From an uncultured Pseudomonadales bacterium (lineage in GTDB: Bacteria; Patescibacteriota; Microgenomatia; UBA1400; PJMF01): DNA of 64,000 nucleotides. The stretch lies in NCBI GenBank assembly GCA_964574595.1, contig CAZNOF010000001.1, positions 142,721-206,720 of the forward strand, read 5' to 3'. Shown in pieces: positions 1 through 19,935 of this stretch (within the stretch, counting starts at the first letter, position 1; every line of letters starts with the position of its first letter). A model generated the notes under the pieces. It ran no database searches and had not been told where the DNA came from. It was given only the letters and a program-made list of their open reading frames with translations. The position numbers were made by a program, and so were the translations under genes.

Positions 1-946
1 TGCCTTTGACAAAACACGCACGCTCACTAAAGGGGAGCCTGTTGTTTCAGACGTTATCCCTTTGAATGGGTACTCTAAAGAAGAGTTGCTCGCTTGTGTG
101 GCTGGCGCTGAAGCTTTTTCCGAACACCCAATAGCCAAAAGCATTATAGAAAGTTCAAAGAAGTTTCCGGAAAAAGACCATGAGTATAAGAATTTTAAAG
201 CGATCATGGGTAAAGGCATCAGTGGCGAATGTTTAGTCTGTGTCGATAAACACCACTGCATTGGCACACTCCAGTTTGTCATGGAAGAACATGCTGTTGA
301 TAAACATGTCGTCGACATCGTTGAGAGATTTGAAAAAGAGGGAAAAACAGCAATCGTTATCAGCGATGATAAGAAGGTAAAAGGTGTAGTAGGAGTTATG
401 GATGAGGTTCGACCCGACAGCAAGCTGGCTGTCCATAGACTCCATCAATTGGGCATAAAAACCGTGATGCTGACTGGAGACAATACCTCGGCAGCTTCCT
501 ACGTCGCCAAAGATATTAGTATCGACGAAGTACATGCCAAACTGTTGCCCGATGAAAAAGTCATCCAGTTATCAAATTTGATGAAGACATATACGCATGT
601 TGCCATGGTTGGTGACGGAGTTAATGACGCTCCGTCCCTAAGTGCCTCGTCGGTGGGAATTGCTATGGGAGCCATAGGTTCAGAGGTGGCCGTGGAAAAC
701 GCCGATATCTCTCTCATGAACAACAATCTAGGACTTATCCCATTTCTCGTATCATTGGGGCGCACAACAAGCACAACGATTAAGATAAATGTGATTGGCA
801 CAATAGGAGTTAAAGTGATTTTTCTCGCACTCGCTGTACTAGGGAAAAGTAACCTAGCCCTGGCAATTTTTGCTGATGTGGGTATGACAATCTTAGTGGT
901 TGCAAATGGGTTAAAACTCTTCGCTTTTGAGGCAGATCGAAAATAA
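1..946 (+). CDS. Heavy-metal translocating P-type ATPase, C-terminal part (5' end lies outside window)
   Basis: The reading frame is open from nt 2 (AFDKTRTLTKGEP = DKTGT phosphorylation motif). The HAD-domain hinge motif MVGDGVNDAPSL is present, followed by C-terminal TM helices. The ORF-track start at 62 (TTG) is internal. Confidence 0.85.
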   Translation, partial: AFDKTRTLTKGEPVVSDVIPLNGYSKEELLACVAGAEAFSEHPIAKSIIESSKKFPEKDHEYKNFKAIMGKGISGECLVCVDKHHCIGTLQFVMEEHAVDKHVVDIVERFEKEGKTAIVISDDKKVKGVVGVMDEVRPDSKLAVHRLHQLGIKTVMLTGDNTSAASYVAKDISIDEVHAKLLPDEKVIQLSNLMKTYTHVAMVGDGVNDAPSLSASSVGIAMGAIGSEVAVENADISLMNNNLGLIPFLVSLGRTTSTTIKINVIGTIGVKVIFLALAVLGKSNLALAIFADVGMTILVVANGLKLFAFEADRK

Positions 947-990
947 GCAGCTTGCCTTCAGTTTATCTCATCTGAGTATCTGAGTAACTC

Positions 991-1215
991 TTAATGGTTG
1001 TTCCCTCCACTTCTCATCATCCACACGTGCATCAGTGGACACGCAAGAAGAATCCCCGTATACACTACGGTATTTACAGGAACTTTAAAAACAGTTATTG
1101 CTAACAGTGCGAGAACAACCAAACCGACACAAAGCCCAAGCCATTTGAGTGATGATCCTTGAGGTTTCGCAGCGGGGAGTCTGTCCGTATGATCGTTGTG
1201 ATGTTCCATATGCAA
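991..1215 (-). CDS. Small His-rich membrane protein, DUF2933-like (MHMEHH... CPLMHVWMM)
   Basis: 74 aa with one TM helix, an N-terminal His cluster and a C-terminal CPLMHxxMM motif. This family typically neighbours metal P-type ATPases. It lies downstream of the TCS on the same strand. Confidence 0.55.
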   Translation of the reverse strand: MHMEHHNDHTDRLPAAKPQGSSLKWLGLCVGLVVLALLAITVFKVPVNTVVYTGILLACPLMHVWMMRSGGNNH

Positions 1216-1232
1216 CCTCCTTTGTATACTTA

Positions 1233-1244
1233 ACTGACGTCAGT
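1233..1244. promoter_or_regulatory. Perfect 12-bp palindrome ACTGACGTCAGT between the HK stop and the DUF2933-like start (possible operator)
   Basis: Read directly from the sequence (ACTGAC|GTCAGT). It sits about 18 nt upstream of the minus-strand small gene start and has no loop, so it fits a protein-binding site better than a terminator. Confidence 0.3.
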
Positions 1245-1270
1245 ATAGAAAACAGGAGATGAGGAAATCG

Positions 1271-2686
1271 TTAGGAAGAGATGACTTGTTGATACAACGG
1301 AAACGTGACGAGCATTGTCGTTCCTTTGCCAACTTTACTTTTGACTTGAATATTTCCACGATGTGCGGTGATAATACCTTGCGTAATCGCCAGTCCCAGT
1401 CCGGATCCAAGACTCTTTGTTGCTTTTGAGCCTCTGTAAAAGCGCTTGAAGATATGTTCCACTTCATCTTCAGGAATCCCGATCCCTGTATCTTTCACCT
1501 CAATGACGGCATTTCCTGCCCTCTCGCGAAGTGACAACGACACAGATCCGCCAACAGGTGTGTACTTTATTGCATTATCGAGCAGATTAAGCACCGCTCT
1601 CGCAATCTTATCCTCTGCGCCACTGATCAGAATGCCTGACTTAATATCACTTGTAAAGGTAATATGCTTTTGAGTCGATAGTTTCTGGGCAATCTCCTGC
1701 AGTTCCATAAGCGCCGAAGAGAGGTCAACCGATGCATCACTTAAATTCGGAGTTTGAGCACCAATCCAAGCAAGGTCCAAAATGTTCTTAATTGTTGATG
1801 ATATCCGATTGGTATCTATCAGTGTTTCTTCAAGTGCTTTTTTGTATTCATCTTTTGTCCTCTCCTTGGACATGGTGACTTCAATCCCACCTTTGAGCGT
1901 CGCTACTGGTGTTTTCAATTCATGAGCCACATCACCGATAAATTGGCGTTCACGAATGAATGCTTGATCCAAATGATCAAGGAGGCCGTTAAACGTCTGC
2001 GAGAGTTCCTCAATCTCGTCGCCCGTTTTAGGGTCAGGGACACGATCTTTCAAATTCTGCGCACTGATTTTTTTAAGTTGTTTTGAAACTTGAGCGATTG
2101 GGAGAAGTGCTGTTCGAGCGGCGAGAATTCCACCCAAAACAGCTAAAATAAGTAATCCGACGTATACCATCATCAAGGTGAGAGTTAATGTATTTAACGA
2201 TTCTTTGATCACATCCATGGGTTGTCCCATTAATACTACTGCTTGGAGCTTGCCGTCGCGCTCTGCGGGGAATACCCCAAATCGTATCGATGTTGCCCCA
2301 ACCGAGCGGTTGACAAAAGTTGGTCGAATAATGCTTGCCGACTTTTCAAGCAGATCAGTCACTGAAGCGTCATTGACTCCAAGTTCTTGAGATTGATAGA
2401 GAATCTTTCCATATGGATCTCCGATAATCAAAAGCATTCCCGGCATTTCACTAAATTGCTGTGCCAGGACATCACTATTTTTGATAAAGGACTGGTTCAT
2501 TCCCGTGTCTGTTTGTGCTATGAGCTCTACAATCTTTTGCGTGTGCGCGGTAATGGTGGTATCCGTGTGAGACAGGAGTGACTGTTGGGTAAGTAGATAA
2601 AAGGCAAAAAAGACCACAGCCATCGCCACAGAAAAGATGAGGGTGTACCACACCGTTAATCGAAATCGGATGCTTTTAATATTCAT
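1271..2686 (-). CDS. Sensor histidine kinase (2 TM helices, HAMP, HisKA, HATPase_c)
   Basis: Contains the H-box HELKTPV, N-box LLDNAIKYT, G1 DTGIGIP and G2 GSGLGLAI. The N-terminus carries TM helices flanking a periplasmic loop. Confidence 0.9.
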   Translation of the reverse strand: MNIKSIRFRLTVWYTLIFSVAMAVVFFAFYLLTQQSLLSHTDTTITAHTQKIVELIAQTDTGMNQSFIKNSDVLAQQFSEMPGMLLIIGDPYGKILYQSQELGVNDASVTDLLEKSASIIRPTFVNRSVGATSIRFGVFPAERDGKLQAVVLMGQPMDVIKESLNTLTLTLMMVYVGLLILAVLGGILAARTALLPIAQVSKQLKKISAQNLKDRVPDPKTGDEIEELSQTFNGLLDHLDQAFIRERQFIGDVAHELKTPVATLKGGIEVTMSKERTKDEYKKALEETLIDTNRISSTIKNILDLAWIGAQTPNLSDASVDLSSALMELQEIAQKLSTQKHITFTSDIKSGILISGAEDKIARAVLNLLDNAIKYTPVGGSVSLSLRERAGNAVIEVKDTGIGIPEDEVEHIFKRFYRGSKATKSLGSGLGLAITQGIITAHRGNIQVKSKVGKGTTMLVTFPLYQQVISS

Positions 2687-2691
2687 AAGAC

Positions 2692-3360
2692 CTAGTCGCC
2701 AATCCTATAGCCGACACCATGAACCGTTTGAATCAGCTTCTTTTTCGCACCCGAATCAATTTTCTTCCGGAGAGCGACGACAAACACGTCCACGACATTA
2801 CTCATCCCATCAAAATTATAGTCCCAGACGTGTTCAATGATCATGGTTCGACTGACAACTTCTCCTTTGTGACGAAGTAATAGCTCCAGAATAGCAAATT
2901 CTTTGGGGGTAAGGTTGATCGCTTTCTCACCACGTTTGACAACGTGTTTTAAGGGATCTACTTCCAGATCTTCCATATGTAAAATTGGTGAGGTTTCCTG
3001 ATGGCTCCGGCGAATGAGTGCGTGCACCCTAGAGCGAAACTCAACAAAGGAGAATGGTTTAGTAATATAGTCATCTGCTCCACTATCCAAACCAGCCACT
3101 TTATCTTCAGTGGTCGATTTGGCCGTGAGCATCAGAATTGGAGTTTTAATGTTCTTTTTTCGGAGTTCGCGACAGAGTTGAAGCCCGTCGACTTTGGGAA
3201 GCATGATGTCCAGCACAATCAAATCGTACTGCTCGTCTTCAGCTAACTCTTGACCTTCTTCACCATCGTAGGCTTGATCAACGGCGAAACCGTCCTCCAC
3301 AAAACCTTTTTTAATGATGTTGGACAATCGACGTTCGTCCTCAACAATTAGAATTCTCAT
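2692..3360 (-). CDS. OmpR-family response regulator (receiver + winged helix)
   Basis: Starts MRILIVEDE and has D..LDIMLP and LMLTAK receiver motifs plus a C-terminal winged-helix motif (GVGYR). The start was moved to the ATG at 3360; the track gives a GTG at 3366. Confidence 0.9.
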   Translation of the reverse strand: MRILIVEDERRLSNIIKKGFVEDGFAVDQAYDGEEGQELAEDEQYDLIVLDIMLPKVDGLQLCRELRKKNIKTPILMLTAKSTTEDKVAGLDSGADDYITKPFSFVEFRSRVHALIRRSHQETSPILHMEDLEVDPLKHVVKRGEKAINLTPKEFAILELLLRHKGEVVSRTMIIEHVWDYNFDGMSNVVDVFVVALRKKIDSGAKKKLIQTVHGVGYRIGD

Positions 3361-3499
3361 AGACACAGTATATTATAAAATCATGAGGAAAACATGAGCA
3401 TGCAAAGACCGGATTAGTCAAGTTAATTATAATCTTTTGCGAGAACACGCTCATGGTCATCCAGTTTCCCTCTGCAGTGACCGAGAGCAGTATCTCCGA

Positions 3500-3697
3500 T
3501 TAATGAATATGCCCTGACTTCTTCTTCCCCGAATGATCTCCATGATCCATAAACAAAAACATTAAAGGACAGAGTAGTAACAGTGGAAAGAAGAACGATC
3601 CAACTCCAAAAGTGGACATGTGCATAAACGTCACCAAAACACTATATAGTGTGACCATTCCTACGGCGTACAAGAGAATTTTTCCAAACGTTTTCAT
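3500..3697 (-). CDS. Second small His-rich membrane protein, DUF2933-like (CPLMFLFMDHGDH)
   Basis: 65 aa with one TM helix, the same CPLM..FM motif and a His-rich tail. It heads the minus-strand transcription unit that contains the TCS. Confidence 0.5.
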   Translation of the reverse strand: MKTFGKILLYAVGMVTLYSVLVTFMHMSTFGVGSFFFPLLLLCPLMFLFMDHGDHSGKKKSGHIH

Positions 3698-3828
3698 ATT
3701 CTTTCACCTCCTTTCAGACCAATAATATCAATTAAGGTATGAGGATTTTGTGAATATTTCATTAGTTTTTAAAACGATTTCAATGGACATTGATATCGTA
3801 CTACATTCTGTAGTACCTTATACCTCTA

Positions 3829-5001
3829 ATGGCTTTTCATTATCGTTCGTTCCTCTCTATTATTCTTATCTTTTTTTTGATGGTGGGTTTTAGCACACTT
3901 GGCTCAAGAACCGTTTTGGCTCAAGAAAAAAATTTAGACTCCTTAAAACAGAAAATTGAAGAACTTAAACGCAAGGTCACTCAAACTCAGGGAGAATCGA
4001 AGACACTGGCATCTGCTCTTACATACCTAACCAACAAAGAAGCTCAGACACAAAAACAAATCGAAAACACCGAATCTGAGATCGCGAGCCTTGAGCAAGA
4101 TGTGGATTCACTTTCAAAATCGATTGTTAAACTTGAATCTTCTCTGAATATTTTGTCCAAACAACTGGTTGCGAGCATTCAAAGATCATACAGGGCTGCA
4201 AAGATTGAGCCCTATCTTGCGCTTCTGGACTCTGATACGTTCTCCGATTTGCTTAAGAAATACAAGTATATTGAAGCCTTTCGAGCGGATACTCAGCAGC
4301 TGATGTTTAAAAGTGAACGTCAAAAACAGGAATACGAGACGCAACGCTCTCAACTTGAGACAAAGCAAGCCCAGGTCAAAAATTTACAGGAACAACTGCA
4401 AAAAACAAAAGAAATGCTTGCTCAACAACAAAAAGATAAAGCCAAATTACTTGAAATTAGCAAAAACAACGAACAGGCATACCAACAAGAGCTCCAAAGA
4501 GCTTTGATAGAGTATGACGCAATTCAACAAGCCATTTCCAGCACAGGCAATGACATGAAAGTTGGAGAAGTGAAACGAGGAGAAAAAATAGCCTCCATTA
4601 TCCCGGGTCCTTCTACATGTTCGACTGGAGGACATCTTCATTTCGAGGTTGTAAAACAAAAGCAAACTGTAAACCCAGCGGGGGTTTTAAAACAAGTTGA
4701 TATTCAGTGGGCAGACGAAAGTTTTTCTTTCTCAGGTAACTGGGATTGGCCTCTAAACAACCCAGCCAAGGTCATGCAAGGATATGGGATGACAAGTTTC
4801 GCTCGAAGTGGATTTTATGGAGGAAGACCACACACAGGCATAGACATCAAAAGTAAGTCTCCAAGTGATTGGTCGGTTTTGGCAGTGGAAAAAGGAACAC
4901 TTTATCGAGGTTCTGTTAAATGCGGAAAAGGTAATTTACAGTACGTACGAGTTGATCATCTCGACAATGTCTCCTCGTATTATTTGCACATTAATTATTA
5001 G
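3829..5001 (+). CDS. Coiled-coil M23/LytM peptidase (EnvC-like murein hydrolase activator)
   Basis: Signal/TM N-terminus, a long Q/E/K-rich coiled coil, and a C-terminal M23 domain (HTGIDI; no HxH second motif found). A second HLHF occurs mid-protein. Confidence 0.75.
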   Translation: MAFHYRSFLSIILIFFLMVGFSTLGSRTVLAQEKNLDSLKQKIEELKRKVTQTQGESKTLASALTYLTNKEAQTQKQIENTESEIASLEQDVDSLSKSIVKLESSLNILSKQLVASIQRSYRAAKIEPYLALLDSDTFSDLLKKYKYIEAFRADTQQLMFKSERQKQEYETQRSQLETKQAQVKNLQEQLQKTKEMLAQQQKDKAKLLEISKNNEQAYQQELQRALIEYDAIQQAISSTGNDMKVGEVKRGEKIASIIPGPSTCSTGGHLHFEVVKQKQTVNPAGVLKQVDIQWADESFSFSGNWDWPLNNPAKVMQGYGMTSFARSGFYGGRPHTGIDIKSKSPSDWSVLAVEKGTLYRGSVKCGKGNLQYVRVDHLDNVSSYYLHINY

Positions 5002-5008
5002 AGTAGTC

Positions 5009-5542
5009 TCATCGCTTATCGCTTCGTATAAAAGTTATGTGCTCCTCTGCGTGGGAATTAAAGTGATCGGCAGTTCCACTAATCATCTGCTCCACACACC
5101 ACTTGGCATATAACCCAGATAAAAGCTGACCCAACCACGCATTCGTCAAAGGAAGTTCGTAATCGATGGACACAGACAGCAGAGAGTTTTCCTCTTCTGG
5201 TGTTATCTCAACTGTCATCTGATATTGCCCAATAATGAGGAGTTTTGGAATGCCGACAGTTTCCCATACTTTGAGCGTCGGTGGTTCCCGCTTTGTGACT
5301 ACTTCATCTAAAAAGATACGTATGCCAAAGACAATTCCATCCATCTTGATGTGTGATCCAACCGCTTGGCCTTTTTTTTCATCGACAACGGTACTCATCT
5401 TCCCACCTCCAAGCATCAATGACGACTCGTTCATGTGCGAGGAAAACTTGCTCGGGTCATCAATGTATGAAAACACGTCAGTTGGTGAGGCGTGTATGAC
5501 CTTATTTTCACCATAGTGATGAAGGGATTCTGAGGTGTTCAT
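5009..5542 (-). CDS. SRPBCC (polyketide-cyclase/AHSA1-like) protein
   Basis: 177 aa lying downstream of ArsR, which is the classic ArsR–SRPBCC pairing. The fold call is based on context and composition. Confidence 0.4.
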   Translation of the reverse strand: MNTSESLHHYGENKVIHASPTDVFSYIDDPSKFSSHMNESSLMLGGGKMSTVVDEKKGQAVGSHIKMDGIVFGIRIFLDEVVTKREPPTLKVWETVGIPKLLIIGQYQMTVEITPEEENSLLSVSIDYELPLTNAWLGQLLSGLYAKWCVEQMISGTADHFNSHAEEHITFIRSDKR

Positions 5543-5543
5543 A

Positions 5544-5849
5544 TTATTTTTGGTGCGTTCTGATGTTGAGTACCATCATAGCAGTATCGTGGATCAGTTG
5601 TGGTGAACGAACGTGATAAAACTTTTTTTGACCTACCTTTTTTACTGCTACGATATTCGCTTTTCGCAGTACCATGAGGTGTTGCGAAATATTTGCTTGC
5701 GGGAGATGGGTTTTTTGGATAATCTCTCCAACACATAATGGATGGTCTCGTAATGCGTCGAGAATTTCCAATCGTTTCGGATTGGCCAATGCCTTAAAAA
5801 AAGCTGCTTCCTGTTCAATGACATCCATAATTCTCTCTAAATTCCACAA
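5544..5849 (-). CDS. ArsR/SmtB-family transcriptional regulator
   Basis: Has the LANPKRLEILDAL...CVGEI helix-turn-helix motif and is about 100 aa long. Confidence 0.8.
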   Translation of the reverse strand: MWNLERIMDVIEQEAAFFKALANPKRLEILDALRDHPLCVGEIIQKTHLPQANISQHLMVLRKANIVAVKKVGQKKFYHVRSPQLIHDTAMMVLNIRTHQK

Positions 5850-6775
5850 CCTCCACCTTGTTTTGGAGGCTGTTGTACCAGACCTTTTTCAATCAGCCAC
5901 TGTTTGACACTTTGCGCCCCAGAAGCCGATGAATACTCTTTACTCAATAGCGTTTTTGCATCAATATCTTGATATGATTGTCCCTCTTTATTCTTAAAGT
6001 ATAATGCAAGATCGTAATAGTTTCCTGGGAACCAATAGGCATTAAAGTACTTTCCAGCGTCATACATCTGCTTCTCACTGGCTCCACTACTGGCCATGAG
6101 TTGAAGGACTCCTAGGAGTGCCATCCCATGATTGCAGTCTGGGAAAGCCGTGGAGTTATTGCAACATGGTCTATAGATGTTTGAGGCAACGAGAGCCACT
6201 CTGTCTTCTTGTTCCTTTGTCATTGGAATCAGTGTCGATTTCGAGTAGTAATTCATCGCATCAGTTTTGGCGAGTGTCCACCCTCCAGTAGAGGCAAAAT
6301 TGCCCGCTCCTTGCTTCCCACCATACTTCATCATGTCACCATCAGTAAGGATGGTTGACTTGTTTGCCAGTCCAACCGCCCAAAAGTAGTTTAATAAGAA
6401 ATATGAATTCTCCCGAGTAATCTTGATCTTCTGCGTCGATCCTTTTAATAGAATATCCTCTTGTTCAGGGCTCAACGATTGGCCCGATTTTTCATACACA
6501 CTCCTGAATTTATCTGCATCGATGACTCCCATTGCCACCATTTTTGGTCCCAAATTCCCGTACGATGCTTCAATTTCAAATCCGGAAACGGGGTTCACTT
6601 CATCAAACACATTATCCTGGCTGGTAGGCGACGCCTGAATGAGTGGAGACTTTATCGGAGACACTAATCTCCCCGCTCGTAATTTCGCAACTTGTGGGGA
6701 GAGATACAGTCCCACCAGCACAGCGTTGATAGCCACACTCATAAGGAGGATAGAAAAGAGTTTGTTATTTTTCAT
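5837..6775 (-). CDS. Membrane-anchored secreted Cys-rich protein of unknown function
   Basis: N-terminal TM helix, a PCCNNSTAFPDCNHGM cluster and a C-terminal GGGCGI. The start was moved to the ATG at 6775, which has a GAGG spaced about 10 nt upstream. Confidence 0.5.
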   Translation of the reverse strand: MKNNKLFSILLMSVAINAVLVGLYLSPQVAKLRAGRLVSPIKSPLIQASPTSQDNVFDEVNPVSGFEIEASYGNLGPKMVAMGVIDADKFRSVYEKSGQSLSPEQEDILLKGSTQKIKITRENSYFLLNYFWAVGLANKSTILTDGDMMKYGGKQGAGNFASTGGWTLAKTDAMNYYSKSTLIPMTKEQEDRVALVASNIYRPCCNNSTAFPDCNHGMALLGVLQLMASSGASEKQMYDAGKYFNAYWFPGNYYDLALYFKNKEGQSYQDIDAKTLLSKEYSSASGAQSVKQWLIEKGLVQQPPKQGGGCGI

Positions 6776-7586
6776 AGCTTGCATGCCTCAATAACTTATA
6801 GAACACGAAGAGAATCACTCCAAACACAAGTAAGTCTACGATTGGGTTTTGGAAATACTTTGCTACCTCAAACACAATCATGCGGATTTGCTGACCATAT
6901 CCTTCCATTTGATTCATCTGAATCTTTCCCATGTAATTAAAGATCGCGATCAGAATACCGGTCAAAAAGAAGATTGCCGCCCCCAGATACTTGAGAACTG
7001 AATAAATTTTCAATCGGTTTGGTCCGGCTAGCTTTACTGAAGCCTTCTCATAAAACATAGACATCACAAAGAGTGGCATCACAATTCCAACTACATATGA
7101 GAGCGACACGATGAGGGCTTGGAATAGCGATGGAGACAGAGAGGTTAACGTCACGGCTGCAAACAGGACTGGAGCGCAACATGCGGAGGTGAGCCCAGAC
7201 ATCAATCCCAAGCCGAACACACTTGCAGTACTGATTTTTTTGTTTTGTGGACCAGAGACGTGAAAGATCTGAGGCAGATGAAAGATTGGCTTTAATGTCA
7301 TGATTCCCATCAAGATCATGATGAACGCTCCAAGATAGTAGATTGGTGCATGATACGCATCTAAGAAAAAGATTGCAGATCTGATCCCTAGTGCAATGGG
7401 AACTAGCACAAACGCCAATCCAAGTGCAAAAATGAGCGTGTAATACATTACGCGTCCACGTTCCTTAAAAATAGTTCCTAAATATGAAGGGAACAAAAAA
7501 GTAATGCAACACGGTGCAAAGAGTGCAAGAACTCCTGCTAAGAAGGATGCCGTGAGTGATATGCCGAATAAGAAGTTTGTATCCAT
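6765..7586 (-). CDS. DsbD_2/CcdA-like polytopic membrane protein with two CC motifs
   Basis: At least six TM helices. FAPCC sits in the first helix and TSACCAP in a later helix, which is typical of transmembrane thiol-disulfide or metal-handling DsbD-like proteins. Confidence 0.5.
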   Translation of the reverse strand: MDTNFLFGISLTASFLAGVLALFAPCCITFLFPSYLGTIFKERGRVMYYTLIFALGLAFVLVPIALGIRSAIFFLDAYHAPIYYLGAFIMILMGIMTLKPIFHLPQIFHVSGPQNKKISTASVFGLGLMSGLTSACCAPVLFAAVTLTSLSPSLFQALIVSLSYVVGIVMPLFVMSMFYEKASVKLAGPNRLKIYSVLKYLGAAIFFLTGILIAIFNYMGKIQMNQMEGYGQQIRMIVFEVAKYFQNPIVDLLVFGVILFVFYKLLRHASYEK

Positions 7587-7587
7587 A

Positions 7588-8100
7588 TTACTGTACGTTC
7601 GCCTTGATGCTAAATATTATTTTTTGGTTTGCAGGATCATTCGTGGTTACATACACCTCTCTCGTGACAATTCCATACACTGGCATAGTTGCAGGTCGGT
7701 ACGTCAACCGCACAATCGCAGAATCTCCAGGAGCAATTTCCGTCACAAACCCGCTTTGGGAATGCATGCTATATTCCTTGCTCGTCGTCCCGTTATAGAT
7801 AATCTGTCCAGCCGTACACCCACAGCTTGAGTTCACATTGAGAATCTGCAAAGGCTTCGTTCCCACATTCTTCAAGGTAAAGTCTTGCAGTTTCACATCT
7901 GATACCTTGATGACTCCCATATCAAAGAATGTTTGGGTGGTCTCAGCTTTTGGACGCTCTGTATCTTGTGTTGAAAAGGCAGCCGCACCAGGTTGAGGCA
8001 TCTGGGTAGACGAGAACAAAAACGCCATTCCTACGACGGCAACAACAAATACTAGTAAACCGATGATGATAACTTTTGGTGACATGTACAAATCGTACAA
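7588..8100 (-). CDS. Secreted DUF1573-like protein (SCGCT motif)
   Basis: N-terminal TM/signal, a beta-rich domain and an NVNSSCGCTAG motif. It is tightly coupled to the DsbD_2-like gene (2-nt gap). Confidence 0.4.
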   Translation of the reverse strand: MYDLYMSPKVIIIGLLVFVVAVVGMAFLFSSTQMPQPGAAAFSTQDTERPKAETTQTFFDMGVIKVSDVKLQDFTLKNVGTKPLQILNVNSSCGCTAGQIIYNGTTSKEYSMHSQSGFVTEIAPGDSAIVRLTYRPATMPVYGIVTREVYVTTNDPANQKIIFSIKANVQ

Positions 8101-8242
8101 CCGCAGAGATTAAGATTTTGTGAAGAATTGTGCACGAATCCGATAAACCTAAAGCATGAAATGTCGTAATTGAAAATATATAATAATTTCCTATTTAACC
8201 AGTATTTCCCATCTTGTTCCCACTTCCGAGTATTACTATTGG

Positions 8243-8986
8243 GTGATGAATCACACAGCTATCATCGAAACGCATGGATTATCAAAAAAATACAAGGACT
8301 TTTCTGCATTGCTTGAACTTGACTTGAAAGTATTTAAGGGTGAGGTTTTTGGCTTTTTGGGACACAATGGAGCTGGAAAAACAACCACTGTCAGCATCCT
8401 GACGACGTTACTACAGCCAACTGGAGGTTCTGCAACAGTTTGCGGTTTCGATGTTGTTAACAAAAGCATTGAAGTGAGGAAGAATATTGGATATTTGCCA
8501 GAAAACGTGAAGTTTTATGATAATTTGACTGCATATGAAAACTTAGAATATCTGGCAAACCTCTCTGGTATCCGAAAGCCAAAGGAAAGAATAACTGACG
8601 TTTTAGAGTTTCTCGATTTTACGGGTATTGAGAAGAAAAAATTAGGAGAGTTTTCTAAAGGCATGCGACAACGTATAGGTATAGCTCAGGCTATATTACA
8701 CGAACCAAAAGTTTTGTTTCTCGATGAACCAACATCGGGACTTGATCCAATGGGTATTAAGAAGCTTCGAGAAACGATTATCAAACTCAACAAAGAAAAA
8801 GACATGACAATTTTCATGAATACGCACCTTCTCTCTGAGGTGGCAAAAACGTGTACGTCTATCGGAGTACTTAATCATGGGAAACTTATATATAAAGATA
8901 CATTAGAAAATACACTAAAACGATTTCGTGATGAAACATCTCTTGAAGAGATATATTTCTCTATGGAAGAAAAAAAAGCAGTATGA
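8243..8986 (+). CDS. ABC transporter ATP-binding protein
   Basis: Walker A GHNGAGKTT, signature FSKGMRQR, Walker B LFLDEPTSGLD, H-loop NTHLL. Confidence 0.9.
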   Translation: MMNHTAIIETHGLSKKYKDFSALLELDLKVFKGEVFGFLGHNGAGKTTTVSILTTLLQPTGGSATVCGFDVVNKSIEVRKNIGYLPENVKFYDNLTAYENLEYLANLSGIRKPKERITDVLEFLDFTGIEKKKLGEFSKGMRQRIGIAQAILHEPKVLFLDEPTSGLDPMGIKKLRETIIKLNKEKDMTIFMNTHLLSEVAKTCTSIGVLNHGKLIYKDTLENTLKRFRDETSLEEIYFSMEEKKAV

Positions 8987-9930
8987 ATGCCCTTTTGACA
9001 ATAGCGGCTTTGGAAGTTAAAACGCTGTTTAAAGAGCGAATATTCTTTCTTCTCCTTTCTGTTTTCGTCTGCATGACAGTAGTCTCCACGTTTATTGGTT
9101 GGTCCACACTTACCACTACACACGCCATTTATAACGCGTCTGTCATTTTTCTCCATCAACAGGGAGTTACACAAATTCCATTAAACCCTGTCTCATCATT
9201 TCCCGCGTTATCAAGTTTTAGAAATATTATCGTTTATATGTTCCTCATTGGCAGTTTGATGGCGATTGTTGTTGGAAATAGAAGTTTTATTCGAGAACGA
9301 AAGTCAGGGACATTACAACTTCTCTTGACGCGACCAATTTCACGATCGACGCTCCTTATTGGGAAGGTTTTTGGTCTTTGTTTTGCACTCTTAAGCATTA
9401 TCACCGTAACGGCAATTATCAGTATCGCAACTTCTTACATCTTGCCACTAAAACATCTAGACGTACAAGATATTACTCGATTGTCAGTATTTTATATTTA
9501 TTCGTTCTTTTATATCTTTCTCTTTTCCCTATTGGGACTTCTTTCTGCAATTATCGCCAGAAGTGAGTCTCTAGCATTATTTATCCCGGTCTGCATTTGG
9601 GTGGGAATTAGTTTTGTAATGCCAGAGTTAGTCTCGGGTCAGACGCCAACCGCATTACTGAATCCTGTGACTATATCAACTGTTGCTGCTCAGGGTAGTT
9701 TCTTTTCCATATCACAACAAATACTTACGCCCATCTCAATCGGCTGGCACTATACCTCATTAGGAAGCCAGTTATTAAATGCTACTGCAGATACACAATC
9801 TTTATTTTACATTTTACAGCTAAACAAAAACAATATTGTTCTCCTCATTATTTTACTTTTGAGCACATACTTACTCTGTTCTATGGCCATAGAAAAATTT
9901 AATGTTGTAAGTGATATGGTGGATGACTAA
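8983..9930 (+). CDS. ABC-2 family permease
   Basis: Six TM helices. Its start overlaps the ATPase stop (ATGA). Confidence 0.7.
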   Translation: MNALLTIAALEVKTLFKERIFFLLLSVFVCMTVVSTFIGWSTLTTTHAIYNASVIFLHQQGVTQIPLNPVSSFPALSSFRNIIVYMFLIGSLMAIVVGNRSFIRERKSGTLQLLLTRPISRSTLLIGKVFGLCFALLSIITVTAIISIATSYILPLKHLDVQDITRLSVFYIYSFFYIFLFSLLGLLSAIIARSESLALFIPVCIWVGISFVMPELVSGQTPTALLNPVTISTVAAQGSFFSISQQILTPISIGWHYTSLGSQLLNATADTQSLFYILQLNKNNIVLLIILLLSTYLLCSMAIEKFNVVSDMVDD

Positions 9931-13198: not shown

Positions 13199-13756
13199 CT
13201 ATGAAAGCTTCCATATGCCAACAGTCGCAACTCTCTTCTCCTGTAAAGTAATAACTACTGTCCAACGTACTGGTCGGAATCTCAGCAGAGAAAGCTCTGC
13301 TTTAATGCCATCTTTGTAAATAGGAAAACACATATAATCATTTGCCAATAAAAACTTGCCAAGCGATTGGATTTTATCGAGGGCCTTTTTCTTGTCTAAC
13401 ATATAGTAAAAAACTTCAGAACAGATTACTAAGTCGAACTTTTTTTCAAACTTTAACTCTTCAATCGCACCAACCCTAAAATCTACACCTTTCACTCTTT
13501 TTCTAGCACGTTCAATTGCCAATGGAGTGACGTCTATTGCGGTAATATCCGTACATATGCCTTGCAACATTTGCGTAAAATGTCCCTCTGCACAACCGAT
13601 CTCTAAAATTGAAGCATGTGGAACGGAATTCGCATATTCGAGTAGTTTCTTAAATCGTTTCTTTTCGTGTGGCGATGTCTCAAAATGCCAATGGTCTTCA
13701 CCTTTAACATCGAAATCTTTCGCAAGTTGTTGGTACACTTTTATTTGTTTTTCCAT
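13199..13756 (-). CDS. Class I SAM-dependent methyltransferase
   Basis: Motif I ILEIGCAEGHFT and motif II DLVICSEV. Confidence 0.75.
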   Translation of the reverse strand: MEKQIKVYQQLAKDFDVKGEDHWHFETSPHEKKRFKKLLEYANSVPHASILEIGCAEGHFTQMLQGICTDITAIDVTPLAIERARKRVKGVDFRVGAIEELKFEKKFDLVICSEVFYYMLDKKKALDKIQSLGKFLLANDYMCFPIYKDGIKAELSLLRFRPVRWTVVITLQEKRVATVGIWKLS

Positions 13757-13885
13757 AATAGGTCCTTATACACTGCTGTTTTGACGGATTCACGTTCTGG
13801 TACTTTATGTCCTGATGATGGGAATAGGATGGGAACATCTTATTTTCATCCTATTCCCATACTTGCCGATTTATACTTTGGGCAT

Positions 13886-14674
13886 ATGTCATCAGAATCA
13901 TCTCCAACATCCGTCGAAAATCACTTGTGGAACAAAGTTCCGGAAATTACCCTCTTTTTCTGGATCATTAAAGTTTTGTGTACGACAGTCGGTGAAACTG
14001 CTGCGGATTTTCTCAATACCAGTCTTCACTTAGGCCTCAATGGAACGACAATCGTAATGGGAACACTTCTGGCAATTGTTCTATTCTTTCAATTAAAAGC
14101 AAAGAGGTACATTCCCGGGCTCTATTGGCTGGCAGTGGTACTCATTAGTGTGTTTGGAACACTGATTACAGATAATCTTACGGACAATTTGGGAGTAAAT
14201 TTATTGACCTCTACGGCAGTTTTCAGTGTTGCCTTAGTAGCAGTGTTTGGAATATGGTATGCGTTTGAAAAAACTCTTTCCATGCACAGTATATTTACTT
14301 TACGAAGGGAATCGTTCTACTGGCTGACTGTCCTCTGTACCTTTGCGTTAGGAACCGCTGCAGGCGATTTGGTTGCTGAGCAGTTTGATCTTGGATACGC
14401 ACTTTCAGCACTCCTCTTTGCCGGGATTATTGCGGCAATTACTATTGCTCATAAAAAATTCAAACTCAATGCAATCGTCGCCTTTTGGGGTGCTTATATT
14501 TTGACTCGACCACTAGGGGCATCGATCGGAGACTATTTATCTCAGCCAAGTGAAAATGGAGGTCTTGGGCTAGGAACCGTTGTAACAAGTATCATCTTCC
14601 TCACTGCAATTTTAGGTACCGTTATCTATCTGGCAGTTACGAAGAAAGATGTTTCAAAACATCTCACAGCCTAA
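13886..14674 (+). CDS. Polytopic membrane protein with three internal repeats (LCTTVGETAADFL / LCTFALGTAAGDL / LTRPLGASIGDYL)
   Basis: The track ORF starts at 13667, but that stretch overlaps the antisense methyltransferase, so the start was moved to the ATG at 13886. Three repeats of helix–G-x-x-x-D–helix are visible in the translation. Confidence 0.45.
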   Translation: MSSESSPTSVENHLWNKVPEITLFFWIIKVLCTTVGETAADFLNTSLHLGLNGTTIVMGTLLAIVLFFQLKAKRYIPGLYWLAVVLISVFGTLITDNLTDNLGVNLLTSTAVFSVALVAVFGIWYAFEKTLSMHSIFTLRRESFYWLTVLCTFALGTAAGDLVAEQFDLGYALSALLFAGIIAAITIAHKKFKLNAIVAFWGAYILTRPLGASIGDYLSQPSENGGLGLGTVVTSIIFLTAILGTVIYLAVTKKDVSKHLTA

Positions 14675-14719
14675 GTTTCTCTCATCTTGCTCTCATCTCC
14701 CTACCAGTATAATAGCCCT

Positions 14720-15394
14720 ATGCAAATACTCATTGTAGAAGACGAGCTTAAGATAGCTCACTTTCTCAAACGTGGACTTTCCGAGGAAGGATATGTTATC
14801 GACCTTGCCCATGATGGCGAACAAGGACTGGAAAAATTTGAAATAAATTCCTACGACCTTATCATTTTGGATATCATGATTCCCAAAATTAATGGCGTAG
14901 CGGTCTGTAAAACTATACGGGAGAAGGATACGAATATTCCCATTTTAATGTTGACCGCAAAAGCTGCCATCGATGACAAAATTGCCGGGCTTGATGCTGG
15001 GGCAGACGACTACATGATTAAGCCATTTTCATTTGCCGAACTTTCAGCACGGATACGAGCATTACTTCGTCGAGGAAAAAAAGCTGACCCCACCATATTC
15101 ACTATAAATAACTTAGAGCTCAATCCTGCGACGAGAACTGCTAGTCGAGCAGGAAAACTTATTACCCTGACGACCAGAGAATACGCACTCCTGGAATATT
15201 TCATGCGTAACCCCAACATCGTCCTTACAAAAACACAAATACTTGAGCATGTCTGGGACTACAATTACGACGGGCTCTCAAATATTGTGGAAACATACGT
15301 AAAATACCTTCGTAAAAAATTACTGACTAGTAGATCAGAAAAAGAGCTCATTCATACCCTTCGCGGTTCCGGGTACATTCTAAAAATTGCGTAA
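14720..15394 (+). CDS. OmpR-family response regulator
   Basis: Starts MQILIVEDE, has LMLTAK and a winged helix (RGSGY). Start taken at the ATG at 14720. Confidence 0.9.
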   Translation: MQILIVEDELKIAHFLKRGLSEEGYVIDLAHDGEQGLEKFEINSYDLIILDIMIPKINGVAVCKTIREKDTNIPILMLTAKAAIDDKIAGLDAGADDYMIKPFSFAELSARIRALLRRGKKADPTIFTINNLELNPATRTASRAGKLITLTTREYALLEYFMRNPNIVLTKTQILEHVWDYNYDGLSNIVETYVKYLRKKLLTSRSEKELIHTLRGSGYILKIA

Positions 15395-15395
15395 T

Positions 15396-16412
15396 ATGTT
15401 TACCAAAGCCCAAGTACAGCTAACCATTCTCTATTCCATCTTTTTCTTAGGTTTGTTTTGGATTTTCAGTTTTGGACTGTATACATGGATGAATAGTTCT
15501 TTTGGCGAGGGATATATTAGTCAAGTTCAATATCGTCAGGGAGAAAAAATAGTTGATGAGGATTCCATAAAACCAGGAAGTAACAACGAAAAGATAGTCA
15601 CGATCGCTGGAGACGTGGCATTGGATCAGTTACTGCGTATTTTAATTGTCCTCAATGGAGTATTCCTGTTTGTCATTCCTGCAGTATCTTGGTATTTAGC
15701 CAAACGAACCCTCAAACCTGTACAAAAAGTACACGAGCGTCAAAGACAGTTTGTTTCTGATGCTTCACATGAGTTGTGCACTCCGCTGTCCATTATGAGT
15801 GGAGAGATGGAAGTCATCCTCAAAAAAGACAGAAGTGCCCATGAGTATAAGAAAACGATTATCAGTACCAAGGAAGAAGTCGAGCGACTCAATACTCTGG
15901 TAGAGAATCTTTTGTTTCTCGCTCGTGAAGATCAACACAAACATTCCCTTCATATAGAGTCCGTAGATATCACGGACGTTGTACATTCAGCTGTCGCATC
16001 CCTGCATCCAAATGCAAGGAGAAAACAAGTTGAGATAAATTTTGTTCCGCCACAGGAGAGCGTTACAACCAAAGGAAACGCTGCGATGCTCCAGCAACTA
16101 TTTGTCAACCTCATCGATAATGCAATCAAATATACGCCTACAAATGGACATATACGTATCTCCATTACTCCAAAAAAAGATGGGGTGGAGATCATCGTAC
16201 AAGATACAGGAATCGGGATTAGTGATGAACAGAAAGCAAAGATTTTCGACAGATTTTATCGAGTTGATTCTGCACGATCGGAAACCAAAGGATATGGATT
16301 GGGATTAGCCATCAGTAAATCAATTATTGATCGACACCATGGGTCTTTAACTGTAACTTCAATAGTTGGAAAAGGCTCGATGTTTCTTGTAAAGCTTCCC
16401 TACTCAGGATAA
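15396..16412 (+). CDS. Sensor histidine kinase
   Basis: H-box HELCTPLS, N-box LIDNAIKYT, G1 DTGIGIS, G2 GYGLGLAI, with two TM helices. Start taken at the ATG at 15396, just after the response-regulator stop. Confidence 0.85.
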   Translation: MFTKAQVQLTILYSIFFLGLFWIFSFGLYTWMNSSFGEGYISQVQYRQGEKIVDEDSIKPGSNNEKIVTIAGDVALDQLLRILIVLNGVFLFVIPAVSWYLAKRTLKPVQKVHERQRQFVSDASHELCTPLSIMSGEMEVILKKDRSAHEYKKTIISTKEEVERLNTLVENLLFLAREDQHKHSLHIESVDITDVVHSAVASLHPNARRKQVEINFVPPQESVTTKGNAAMLQQLFVNLIDNAIKYTPTNGHIRISITPKKDGVEIIVQDTGIGISDEQKAKIFDRFYRVDSARSETKGYGLGLAISKSIIDRHHGSLTVTSIVGKGSMFLVKLPYSG

Positions 16413-16491
16413 GTCTTCCTATTTTCGATTCATCTTCTTCCCACCATTCCCTCTGTATAGTTGGCTATAGAAAGGGGGTGAACAAAATCAT

Positions 16492-16971
16492 ATGAATAAA
16501 TTAACACTACCAGTTCTCGCCTTAGCGATCATTGGAGTTGGTGGAAGTGTCTACACGATCGCAAATAATCGTGCAAATACCGTCCACGCTCAAACAGCTG
16601 CAGTATCAACGCAATCAGCGACAGATATACCTGAGGTTAACGACACACCGGATGTTCAGGAGCCAAAACAAGCTTCTATTACTTCTGGTGTGACCGTTCC
16701 TGAGTCGGCTACGGAGATGGACGATACTGCTGAAAACTCGAAACTCACTACATTGGCAAAAATTAGTGAAGCCCAAGCGAAAGCAGCAGCCGAGAAAAGC
16801 GTTGGTGGTACTGCAAGCTCAGTGAAGCTTGAAGAAGAAAACGGCAACGTGGTCTATACCGTCACAATTGGTGACAAAGAGGTAAAGATCGATGCTGGAA
16901 ACGGCTCAGTACTTCGTACTGAAGCTGCCGATAGCACAGAAACTCATGATCAGACTGATAAGGCTGACTAA
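16492..16971 (+). CDS. Secreted PepSY-domain protein
   Basis: Signal peptide and a C-terminal PepSY-like segment (AKAAAEKSVGGTASSVKLEEENGNVVYTVTIGDKEVKIDAGNGSVL). There is a good GGGGTG RBS upstream. Confidence 0.6.
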   Translation: MNKLTLPVLALAIIGVGGSVYTIANNRANTVHAQTAAVSTQSATDIPEVNDTPDVQEPKQASITSGVTVPESATEMDDTAENSKLTTLAKISEAQAKAAAEKSVGGTASSVKLEEENGNVVYTVTIGDKEVKIDAGNGSVLRTEAADSTETHDQTDKAD

Positions 16972-17811: not shown

Positions 17812-18138
17812 ATGAAAAAAATAATTGTTTTCCAATTTTTCGTTTTCTCTTTTTTACTCCTCGCCTCTCCTGTCTTTGCTCAAGCTACCGATATTGCGAA
17901 GGTTCAGAACTTTATTACCAGTATCATCCAATCACTAGTACTCCTCGCAGGAGCATTAGCCTCTGCTTTCTTTGTCTGGGGTGGGATCAGCTATATCACC
18001 AGCTCAGGAAATCCAGAGTCACTTGAAAACGCTAAAAAAACTATTAAGTATTCAGCGATAGGTCTCACTATTTGCTTAGCCGCATTTGTTATTACAAATA
18101 TCGTCACTCAGTTGGCACAGAAAGCATTTGGTCAATGA
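17812..18138 (+). CDS. VirB2/TrbC-like T4SS pilin
   Basis: 108 aa: a signal peptide (SPVFA|QA) followed by two hydrophobic helices separated by a short polar loop, which is the VirB2 topology. Confidence 0.55.
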   Translation: MKKIIVFQFFVFSFLLLASPVFAQATDIAKVQNFITSIIQSLVLLAGALASAFFVWGGISYITSSGNPESLENAKKTIKYSAIGLTICLAAFVITNIVTQLAQKAFGQ

Positions 18139-18154
18139 GTAGAGAACATGAAGC

Positions 18155-19453
18155 ATGCGTCACACCACCGTATTCATCATTTTCATTTTGCTTGCTATAT
18201 TCCTACCGTCGCCTGTTTTTGCTGTTTCCAATAACCTAGAAGTTACACAATTCACCTCATCAACACTCAACACTCTCACTATTCTTGCCTCTTTGGTAGC
18301 CACCTTTTTTCTACTCCAGGGAGGATATCTCTATATCACCTCAGCAGGAAAGCCTGATGCGCTGCAAGCAGCAAAGAAAACAATTCGGAATGCATCGATC
18401 GGATTAGTGTTGGTTCTCTCCGCAAACACAATTACTTCTCTACTCACTGGAGCATTTACGACTCCAAGTATCCCGATAGATGGAAATTCCCTCGCTTTAA
18501 CGCCAATCGAACCCGTGGCTCCAAGTAGCGGGTTGGCTCAAGTGTTAACTGATTCCATCGCCTCTCTACTTCAGAATATTATCCAAAGTGCTACCAAACC
18601 CATTACGGATGCGATTCTTAGCTTTCTCACCATTACCCCCACTCTGGCAACAAACTCCGTAATTTTTAACTTCTGGCTCATTATCGTAGGTATAACCGAC
18701 TCACTCTTTGCACTTCTGATTGCAGTCTTAGGCTTTCAATTTATGAGTGCGTCAACATTTGGATTTGAAGAACTTGAGCTCAAACAATTATTGCCTCGCA
18801 TTGGTCTGGCCTTTTTAGGAGCAAACACATCCATTTTTATCATTGACTGGATTGTGAAGTTGCTCAATGTTCTCGTGTCTGCAATTCTTCATGCCACGGG
18901 AGGACTCAATCAAGTATGGCTTGCCAACGCGTTTAACCCCGCATCACTGTCTACAGATCAAATTGCACTCATCACACTGATCTTTATGATTCTCTTTCTT
19001 ATCCTGGCAGTCGTTCTGCTACTTTTCTATATCACACGCTTAATCGTGATTGCGCTGGGAGCGGTACTTTCTCCATTACTGTTTTTGCTTTGGTCAGTAC
19101 CAAAGTTTGCTGATTTTGCAGAAATCTCAGCCAAGTCGTATCTGGTAACCGTTTTCTCTATCTTCATACACGTTGTCATCATTCAATTGGCTGCTTCATT
19201 TTTAACACTTCCGGGACAGGTGGGAACAAATTCACTGATCTCAATTCTCGTTGGTGTAGGACTCCTTATGACACTCCTGAAAACTCAATCATTTATGATT
19301 CAACTCATGTTTTACAACTCCGGTCGTTCGATGATCAAACGCATTGGTGGGCAGTTGATGAATGTGATGAGTAGTAAGCAATCGGAATCGACTGCGACGC
19401 CATATTTTGCCGATAAATCTATAAAAACTGCGAGAAAGGTTGTGAACGCATGA
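18155..19453 (+). CDS. Pilin-like N-terminal module fused to a VirB6/TrbL-like polytopic membrane domain
   Basis: The first ~100 aa are paralogous to the upstream pilin (SPVFA cleavage site, LAS/LVA helix, YITS[SA]G[NK]P[ED][SA]L..AKKTI). The remaining ~330 aa contain at least five TM helices. Confidence 0.55.
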   Translation: MRHTTVFIIFILLAIFLPSPVFAVSNNLEVTQFTSSTLNTLTILASLVATFFLLQGGYLYITSAGKPDALQAAKKTIRNASIGLVLVLSANTITSLLTGAFTTPSIPIDGNSLALTPIEPVAPSSGLAQVLTDSIASLLQNIIQSATKPITDAILSFLTITPTLATNSVIFNFWLIIVGITDSLFALLIAVLGFQFMSASTFGFEELELKQLLPRIGLAFLGANTSIFIIDWIVKLLNVLVSAILHATGGLNQVWLANAFNPASLSTDQIALITLIFMILFLILAVVLLLFYITRLIVIALGAVLSPLLFLLWSVPKFADFAEISAKSYLVTVFSIFIHVVIIQLAASFLTLPGQVGTNSLISILVGVGLLMTLLKTQSFMIQLMFYNSGRSMIKRIGGQLMNVMSSKQSESTATPYFADKSIKTARKVVNA

Positions 19454-19935
19454 GAACCACTATTATTCCTGCTCAAATTACATCAGTTGAAGATACCATT
19501 GCAGGGAATTTAAACCTGCAACAAATTGTGTTGTTTATTCTTTCCCTTTTTATCAATACCTTTTTGTATGCGCTTCTTCCTATGCGCCTTGCGTTTACGT
19601 TCTACAAAATTCCAATCATGATCGCGGTCTTCGTAGTATGCATTGGTCTATCGCTTCGAATTAAGCAACGGATCGTTCTCGATTGGCTGGTTGTCTTTGT
19701 TCGATATGCCATTCGTCCACATCTGTATTTCTTTAATAAGAATTCGGAAGTTTTCCGATCCATCGTCGTTGAAAAAGTAATTCTCAAACAATCATTCAAA
19801 CAAACTCCTATTCTCGATTACAAGCTAGATCGTCCCAATTCATCCGCCTTCGACTATACATCCCTTTTACGTAATCCATCGCTAAACATCCAGTTCAAAC
19901 GCAATCGTGTTCAGGTAATCAAAAACTATGAGTAG
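19450..19935 (+). CDS. VirB3/PrgI-like small membrane protein
   Basis: 161 aa with two TM helices, immediately upstream of VirB4 and overlapping the previous gene by ATGA. Confidence 0.4.
   Translation: MRTTIIPAQITSVEDTIAGNLNLQQIVLFILSLFINTFLYALLPMRLAFTFYKIPIMIAVFVVCIGLSLRIKQRIVLDWLVVFVRYAIRPHLYFFNKNSEVFRSIVVEKVILKQSFKQTPILDYKLDRPNSSAFDYTSLLRNPSLNIQFKRNRVQVIKNYE

Follow-up and report, generated by a model that had tools for sequence, protein, structure and literature searches.

Two DUF2933 mini-genes, a heavy-metal-type two-component system and a shared direct-repeat box in a metal island of an uncultured Patescibacteriota bacterium

The DNA analysed here is a stretch of 64,000 nucleotides (nt), called the window below, from an uncultured bacterium deposited under the name Pseudomonadales and placed by GTDB in the lineage Patescibacteriota; Microgenomatia; UBA1400; PJMF01 (GenBank assembly GCA_964574595.1, contig CAZNOF010000001.1, positions 142,721 to 206,720). 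The subject is a unit of four open reading frames (ORFs) at positions 991-3697, which encodes a two-component system and two small proteins of the DUF2933 family (mini1 and mini2), together with the promoter boxes that accompany it. All four ORFs are present on the minus strand and run in one direction, in the order mini1, regulator, kinase, mini2. mini1 (3500-3697) encodes a protein of 65 amino acids (aa) with two hydrophobic helices, the motif CPLMFLFM in helix 2 and the tail DHGDHSGKKKSGHIH. A response regulator of the OmpR/PhoB type (2692-3360, 222 aa) is encoded 5 nt upstream of the gene for a HAMP sensor histidine kinase (1271-2686, 471 aa). The longest ORF of the regulator spans 2692-3366, and gene calls on public contigs and the conserved promoter geometry indicate the ATG at 3360 as the probable start. 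mini2 (991-1209) encodes a protein of 72 aa that is rich in His at the N-terminus and has two helices, the second with CPLMHVWMM. An earlier note on this DNA, made from the sequence alone, gave this gene order and placed the unit at 991-3697, and both stand; its length of 74 aa for mini2 is that of the longest ORF (991-1215), and translation probably begins at the ATG at 1209, which AGGAGG precedes by 6 nt. The 3' part of a P1B heavy-metal ATPase gene, cut by the window start, occupies 2-946 on the plus strand, is convergent with mini2 and ends 44 nt from its stop. The arrangement had been described as head-to-tail, which is wrong: the ATPase gene lies on the plus strand and ends at 946, and the two units therefore meet tail to tail.

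The kinase consists of a transmembrane (TM) helix, an outer domain of about 135 aa, a second TM helix and the domains HAMP, HisKA and HATPase (Pfam). Its outer domain matches the CusS sensor model of Pfam below threshold (22.5 bits against a cut-off of 24.1), and the residues H48, M63, M84 and M153 of this domain are invariant in six orthologues. The regulator carries the Pfam domains Response_reg and Trans_reg_C, is clearly a member of the OmpR family, and finds its best PDB relatives in DrrD and PhoP. The best NCBIfam model for the kinase is TIGR01386 (cztS_silS_copS), matched over the full length with 262.3 bits (curated cut-off 292.55), and that for the regulator is TIGR01387 (cztR_silR_copR), also matched over the full length, with 260.0 bits (curated cut-off 279.2). 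These best matches and the position of the genes in a metal island agree with the previous description of a metal-responsive circuit, and the pair is an ordinary heavy-metal-type system, probably one for copper.

The promoter regions were compared with those of related public contigs and loci (designated L001, L002 and so on); 80 such loci were collected with the kinase as query. In the alignment across relatives, three intergenic regions share one layout: a half-site of 9 nt, a spacer of 2 nt, a second half-site of 9 nt ending in C(C/T)TCAT, a gap of 10-11 nt, and a -10-like hexamer that reads TATACT, TATAAT or TATTAT. Together the two half-sites form a direct repeat of 20 bp with a period of 11 bp. 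OmpR-family regulators usually bind direct repeats with an 11-bp period. Sixteen aligned instances have the same repeat, spacing and -10 box, in orthologues whose kinases are 46-84% identical. The inferred promoter of mini1 (3722-3758) contains the box AATATTCAC AA AATCCTCAT (3739-3758), 11 nt and TGaTATTAT, with the -10 at 3722-3727; this box is conserved in L002 and L004. The inferred promoter of the regulator-kinase pair (3367-3402) consists of the box CATGCTCAT GT TTTCCTCAT (3383-3402), 10 nt, TATACT (3367-3372), 6 nt and the ATG, with the same layout in L002, L004, L009, L010 and L013. The 5' half of the mini2 box, CTTCCTAAC GA TTTCCTCAT (1259-1278), lies inside the last codons of the kinase gene. 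The box is conserved in L002, L004, L009, L010, L011 and L088, and the hexamer TATACT (1242-1247) is found 11 nt downstream of it in the window, L002, L009, L088 and L013. All three promoters lie on the minus strand.

A position weight matrix was built from 15 box instances and used to scan the window. Exactly four sites exceeded 20 bits, and each is on the minus strand; no shuffle out of 30 scored higher than 18.5. Three of these sites are the boxes of mini2 (27.6 bits), the regulator-kinase pair (24.5 bits) and mini1 (23.0 bits). The fourth, ATTCTTCAC AA AATCTTAAT (8109-8128, 20.8 bits), was not used to build the matrix. It is part of the promoter (8092-8128) of a five-gene operon on the minus strand (5009-8085), in which ORFs and Pfam identify DUF1573, a CcdA-like protein with a CC motif, a 315-aa protein, an ArsR regulator and an SRPBCC protein; the box is followed by 11 nt, TACGAT (8092-8097), 6 nt and the ATG at 8085. 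This box is conserved in L002, L003 and L009, and the gene order of the operon is the same in L001-L003 and L009. A generic promoter scan of the minus strand found no canonical -35/-10 promoter, which fits the expectation for activator-dependent promoters. At the regulator gene (3358-3372) and at the DUF1573 operon (8083-8097), exactly 6 nt separate the -10 hexamer from the ATG and a Shine-Dalgarno sequence is missing, which suggests leaderless mRNAs for these two units. The same geometry recurs in L009, L010 and L013. The mini-genes, by contrast, have short leaders with AGGAGG.

Box sites of at least 19 bits were found in all six loci with an orthologous kinase and in none of the 74 loci (1.15 Mb) with more distant kinases. 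Sites in relatives that were not part of the training set precede an ICMT-bPH2-ATPase gene string (L002), multicopper oxidase operons (L009, L011), CcdA genes (L012, L013) and an HMBD-ATPase gene (L013). The DUF2933 genes of L095 and L097 also have such a box, at the same distance from TATAAT. As is characteristic of a CopRS-type regulon, the regulator gene itself and copper-handling genes are preceded by direct-repeat boxes, in the window as well as in the six orthologous loci.

A different site had been proposed for the regulator in the earlier note, namely a perfect 12-bp palindrome, ACTGACGTCAGT, at 1233-1244. The palindrome is indeed located there, before mini2, and overlaps the last 3 nt of the mini2 -10 box and the likely transcription start; the conserved direct-repeat box lies just upstream of it. 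As an operator it was rejected on grounds of chance frequency, uniqueness and non-conservation. Perfect 12-bp palindromes number 13 in the window, where shuffled sequence has 19 on average, and related copies of ACTGACGTCAGT beyond chance are absent. In L002 the centre of the palindrome is changed (ACTGTTAGCAGT), and the element is absent from L009, L088 and L013. It is probably incidental, and the 20-bp direct repeat is the better candidate for the regulator's site.

Both mini-proteins pass the Pfam gathering score of DUF2933 (PF11666), which is 21 bits, with 26.8 bits for mini1 and 23.8 bits for mini2, so that the initial assignment to this family is upheld; the C-P-L-M-x-x-x-M motif and the His-rich ends reported for the pair are likewise present in both. 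BLASTP of mini1 against mini2 gave no alignment. The two are too diverged for this method, and their relation is visible only through Pfam and through subfamily profiles, which find each other with E-values of 2e-5 and 6e-3. Among 51 family members, L55, C57, P58 and M64 (mini2 numbering) are invariant, and C27, H61, M65, H70 and H72 are nearly so. The features that mark membership, an LLxCPLMH core in the second hydrophobic helix and a His-rich tail, were found, and the core is also present in a Salmonella protein of the SGI-4 island (see below). An AlphaFold2 model of mini2 is a helical hairpin with helices at 19-41 and 45-66, where the predicted local distance difference test (pLDDT) is about 80; the mean is 68. 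By the positive-inside rule, the Lys residues that the N-terminus and the tail contain would put both ends inside the cell. The His-rich tails are thus probably cytoplasmic, with the Cys-Pro-x-x-His motif probably in the inner half of the membrane, and the former label "periplasmic" is doubtful.

The ratio of nonsynonymous to synonymous changes (pN/pS) in codon comparisons is 0.11-0.13 for mini1 and 0.10-0.31 for mini2. Given these low values, both are real protein-coding genes under purifying selection, and they are kept in relatives. Orthologues of mini1 are present in L002-L006 at 83-88% identity, and its subfamily is rare, with 8 genuine representatives among 1.84 billion clusters. Orthologues of mini2 were found in L002, L004, L009, L012, L013 and L088; its subfamily comprises more than 40 clusters at 90% identity, and the few with a source name are Patescibacteria/Microgenomates. 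The PDB holds no relative of the mini-proteins, apart from one spurious designed coiled coil. A tblastn search of plasmids with mini2 and with the M23 domain of a neighbouring peptidase gave no match, and a literature search found no mention of PF11666, DUF2933 itself being named in only five papers.

The closest relatives of the locus are assemblies of Candidatus Woesebacteria and Microgenomates. The full four-gene unit recurs in L002/L008, where the kinase is 84% identical, and in L003/L004. mini1 is absent from the orthologous loci L009-L013; in L009 and L010 (kinases 76% and 72% identical) an unrelated ORF of 87-89 aa occupies its position. mini2 directly follows the kinase in the window, L002, L004, L009 and L088, and belongs to the same gene string in L012, L013, L091 and L093. 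In L012 and L013 (kinases 47% and 46% identical) the order is regulator, kinase, CcdA-like gene, redoxin-like gene and then mini2. In two loci the kinase is retained and mini2 is damaged: a frameshift or internal deletion has split the gene in L010 (11447-11604), and it is deleted in L011 (1299-1474), where the box, the -10 hexamer and the ribosome-binding site are still there. The split gene and the promoter left behind indicate recent gene loss. L095 has a DUF2933 gene 6 kb from the kinase, and L097 has one without a kinase in the 8.7 kb of contig seen. The bracketing of the two-component system by DUF2933 genes on both sides is a narrow-clade variant. Across the islands of the Candidate Phyla Radiation (CPR), DUF2933 genes are found among genes for multicopper oxidase, YtkA, YHS, ICMT, bPH2, HMBD-ATPase, DsbA and CcdA/redoxin proteins in varying order; the islands of the relatives also carry cupredoxin and HMA genes.

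The CopRS system of Corynebacterium glutamicum is comparable in several respects. It likewise consists of an OmpR-type regulator and a membrane kinase and is autoregulated, as the sites suggest for the system described here, and its targets are similar and include a multicopper oxidase, a thioredoxin-like protein and a P-type ATPase (PMC3140484). The CopR site has been defined experimentally as TGAAGATTTnnTGAAGATTT (PMC3140484) and is also a direct-repeat operator with an 11-bp period. Its reverse complement, AAATCTTCAnnAAATCTTCA, compares with AAATATTCAcaAAATCCTCA in the window, the site of mini1, which matches it at 16 of 18 positions. The C. glutamicum system differs in having a single site, whereas at least four are present here, one per transcription unit, and no DUF2933 genes were described for it (PMC3140484). 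In the window, unlike in C. glutamicum, the box abuts the -10 element at a fixed distance of 10-11 nt, the phylum belongs to the CPR, and the metal response is a predicted one.

The SilRS, PcoRS and CusRS systems of the enterobacterial copper-silver island (CHASRI, SGI-4) belong to the same NCBIfam heavy-metal subfamily as the pair in the window. The CusR box is an inverted repeat, unlike the direct repeat here. The enterobacterial islands also include RND efflux and outer-membrane parts, which are absent here. In Salmonella SGI-4, a DUF2933 gene of 68 aa (LLLLVCPLMHLFHGHGDH) directly follows silP and faces the M23 peptidase gene pcoG (PMC4824010, PMC12582456). Proximity to an M23 peptidase and a P1B ATPase is common to SGI-4 and the window; the position after silP rather than after a kinase is not. 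In Alteromonas and relatives, strings of copA, cupredoxin, DUF2933 and ICMT genes stand next to MerR genes (PMC8478169), and in Bradyrhizobium DUF2933 and ICMT form bsl7992-bll7991 in a FixK2-dependent operon (PMC9104804). As in the window, the DUF2933 mini-protein belongs to a string of metal-handling genes in both; they differ in MerR-type or FixK2 control and a single DUF2933 copy, against a two-component system, two copies and no ICMT in the window. ICMT-like genes as in these clusters also occur in CPR islands, with their own boxes (L002, L013, L091, L093). Taken across CPR, Salmonella, Alteromonas and Bradyrhizobium, these contexts show that the link of DUF2933 to a kinase is local and that to metal export general.

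On the combined evidence of gene content, sites and conservation, the region is rather probably the control module of a heavy-metal resistance island, most likely for copper, in a Woesebacteria-like CPR bacterium, with the mini-proteins as induced metal-binding outputs and not as sensors. The kinase, by its membership in the CopS/CusS-like family, would sense metal through its own outer domain and phosphorylate the OmpR-type regulator. The regulator would bind the 20-bp direct repeat, which would stand in for a -35 element 10-11 nt upstream of the -10, and would thereby activate at least four promoters of the window: those of the regulator-kinase pair, the DUF1573-CcdA-315aa-ArsR-SRPBCC operon and each of the two mini-genes. 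The same box is seen in relatives before multicopper-oxidase and ICMT-ATPase operons. The mini-proteins would be two-helix membrane hairpins that bind soft metal ions, for example Cu(I), on the inner side of the membrane, either as a buffer or for delivery to exporters, of which the P1B ATPase is one. Since the mini-genes are separate transcription units, each with a regulator-type box, they appear as outputs of the system. In favour of this role, orthologous kinases persist despite loss or frameshift of mini2 or absence of mini1, and DUF2933 genes keep a box-type promoter in L095 and L097, where the kinase is distant or not in view.

Several points weigh against this reading. Kinase and regulator both score below the curated NCBIfam cut-offs, and a PDB search found no relative of the kinase sensor domain. 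The box sites used for training are not independent, because the matrix was built from related sequences. A second OmpR-type system in the window (regulator 14687-15394, kinase 15387-16412) could in principle own the box; it lies within 13667-16971, with a gene for a DUF347 membrane protein before it and one for a PepSY protein after it, and this region has no direct-repeat box. The AlphaFold2 model of mini2 is moderately confident on average, and the topology of the mini-proteins derives from charge distribution alone. Small membrane proteins induced by the regulator and encoded beside the kinase are also the layout of feedback modulators. The adjoining ATPase is of Zn/Cd type, and ArsR-type regulators are present.

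The mini-proteins might instead be partners of the kinase, either handing metal to it as co-sensors or, once induced by the regulator, modulating it by feedback in the membrane. Small membrane feedback proteins of two-component systems are known from MgrB and PhoQ. As there, the gene for a small membrane protein is apparently driven by the regulator and stands beside the kinase gene; unlike MgrB, to which it has no sequence relation, DUF2933 has conserved metal-ligand residues and is widespread without an adjacent kinase. The position of mini2 next to the kinase gene or in its string in the loci named above would suit a partner, as would the box before both mini-genes, which a feedback loop would also have, and the predicted two-helix form, which could bring the proteins into contact with the kinase TM helices. 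Against this stand the absence of mini1 from most orthologous loci and the intact kinases of L010 and L011, where mini2 is a pseudogene or deleted. The 6 kb between DUF2933 gene and kinase in L095 and the contig of L097, with no kinase in view, point the same way, as do the proteobacterial DUF2933 genes, which stand with ATPase and ICMT genes under MerR or FixK2 control and have no dedicated kinase adjacent, and the kinase has its own conserved His/Met outer domain. A partnership is therefore considered unlikely. The proposal in the earlier note of metal sensors or chaperones for the kinase found no direct support, and the distribution of the genes across loci argues against it.

It is likewise rather improbable that the system answers to Zn/Cd/Pb and not to copper, with the mini-proteins serving the convergent ATPase as a P1B-2-type pump. 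The ATPase does look like a Zn/Cd/Pb (P1B-2) type: its best NCBIfam matches are ATPase-IB_hvy and ZntA/CadA-like models, and CPC in the TM region, a Lys in TM5 and the DxG-like ADVG in TM6 were found (IACPCAL, GVKVIF and FADVGM; longer copy on L001 and window). An ArsR/SmtB-type regulator is encoded in a box-controlled operon, and His-rich tails would suit Zn(II) too. Zn/Cd thus stays in consideration on account of the ATPase and the ArsR regulators. However, the ATPase is not a conserved neighbour, its place being taken by YtkA and multicopper oxidase genes in L002, L009, L011 and L088, and the conserved Cys/Met/His set of the mini-proteins favours soft ions. The DKTGT phosphorylation motif is near-universal in P-type ATPases. 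In the window (8-22) and in the L001 copy (8112-9494) the ATPase has DKTRT instead, so that it may be inactive or unusual, although the rest of the protein looks intact. Copper is the most likely metal, because the box-controlled targets in relatives are copper-type genes, the islands have a copper-type gene content, and the box resembles the site of a copper regulator.

That the box belongs to another factor, such as the second OmpR-type regulator encoded 11 kb away, or is a lineage-specific promoter element, with the palindrome as the real operator by virtue of its position in the promoter region, is very improbable: the box stands before the gene of this very regulator in all orthologues, is confined to loci with orthologues of this kinase (six of six, against none of 74), is absent from housekeeping genes in the 64-kb window and has the 11-bp direct-repeat form typical of OmpR-family sites, and the palindrome has no second copy, lacks conservation and is of a kind no more frequent than chance.

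Divergent from mini1, a secreted coiled-coil M23 peptidase is encoded on the plus strand (3829-5001; Pfam Peptidase_M23), and the adjacency of the two genes is kept in L001-L006. A palindrome of 8-3-8 form, GTACTACATTCTGTAGTAC (3798-3816), stands 13 nt before the start of the peptidase gene, is unique in the window and is invariant in four relatives. Its core TACTACA-N3-TGTAGTA recurs in L002 (16354-16370), L009 (15616-15632) and L095 (4834-4850), and each copy has an M56 (BlaR-like) gene on one side and a DsbA-multicopper-oxidase operon on the other, with a Penicillinase_R (BlaI/CopY) gene nearby. This palindrome is a probable operator of a second circuit, of BlaI/CopY type, outside the box regulon; no gene for a BlaI/CopY-type repressor was found in the window. 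Homologues of ICMT, CopY/BlaI, multicopper oxidase, YtkA, YHS and HMA proteins were sought in the window and not found. Two proteins of the DUF1573 operon (5837-7586), the CcdA-like one, whose first helix carries the CC motif, and the 315-aa one after it, are kept in every related island and are box-controlled; neither has a significant Pfam or NCBIfam match.

A possible RNA hairpin after mini1 (3441-3496, minus strand) is weak, with a centroid energy of -23 kcal/mol, a z-score of -1.7, which is not significant, and no U-tail. A terminator scan called nothing at 3441-3496 and found no convincing terminator between the genes. The hairpin-forming part of the spacer between mini1 and the regulator is conserved; downstream of it, a stretch of 38 nt (3403-3440) is present in the window and L002 and absent from L003 and L004. 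The spacer between mini2 and the ATPase folds no better than shuffles, and positions 1-9000 gave no Rfam match at E <= 1. Genes for type IV secretion (TrbC/pilin-like, TrbL, TraC-like and TraG-like) at 17812-22325 have 77-88% protein identity to L002, so that the metal island is possibly next to a conjugative element or part of one. Further on, at about 45-60 kb of the window, lies a cell-division/murein cluster. Small Cys-rich proteins ending in GDCCVFCSYADTKC are encoded in L009 (11912-12121), L013 (2897-3097) and L093 (3789-4007), and L013 also encodes a 63-aa protein that starts with MIFMCHCCGH and has its own box (3148-3339). These are further uncharacterised mini-proteins of metal islands.

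The two-component system is routine, and the direct-repeat regulon is the useful result. With it, the candidate for the regulator's site has shifted from the palindrome to the direct repeat, and the locus offers a model of an operator in a CPR bacterium that can be put to the test: a direct repeat of 20 bp at a fixed distance of 10-11 nt from the -10. To our knowledge, there is almost no experimental work on transcription control in the CPR. The DUF2933 mini-genes are apparently dedicated targets of metal regulators across many CPR islands and are the most approachable handle on the function of DUF2933. A bolder idea, put forward as tentative and improbable as it stands, is that DUF2933 is a class of regulator-induced membrane hairpins that bind Cu(I)/Ag(I) and either hand the metal to P1B ATPases within the membrane or feed the metal load of the membrane back to the kinase, with two diverged copies under their own box promoters dividing these roles in the lineage of the window. 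If true, this would give a function to a widespread family that has none so far, with members also in the copper-silver islands of Salmonella and E. coli, which are of clinical relevance.

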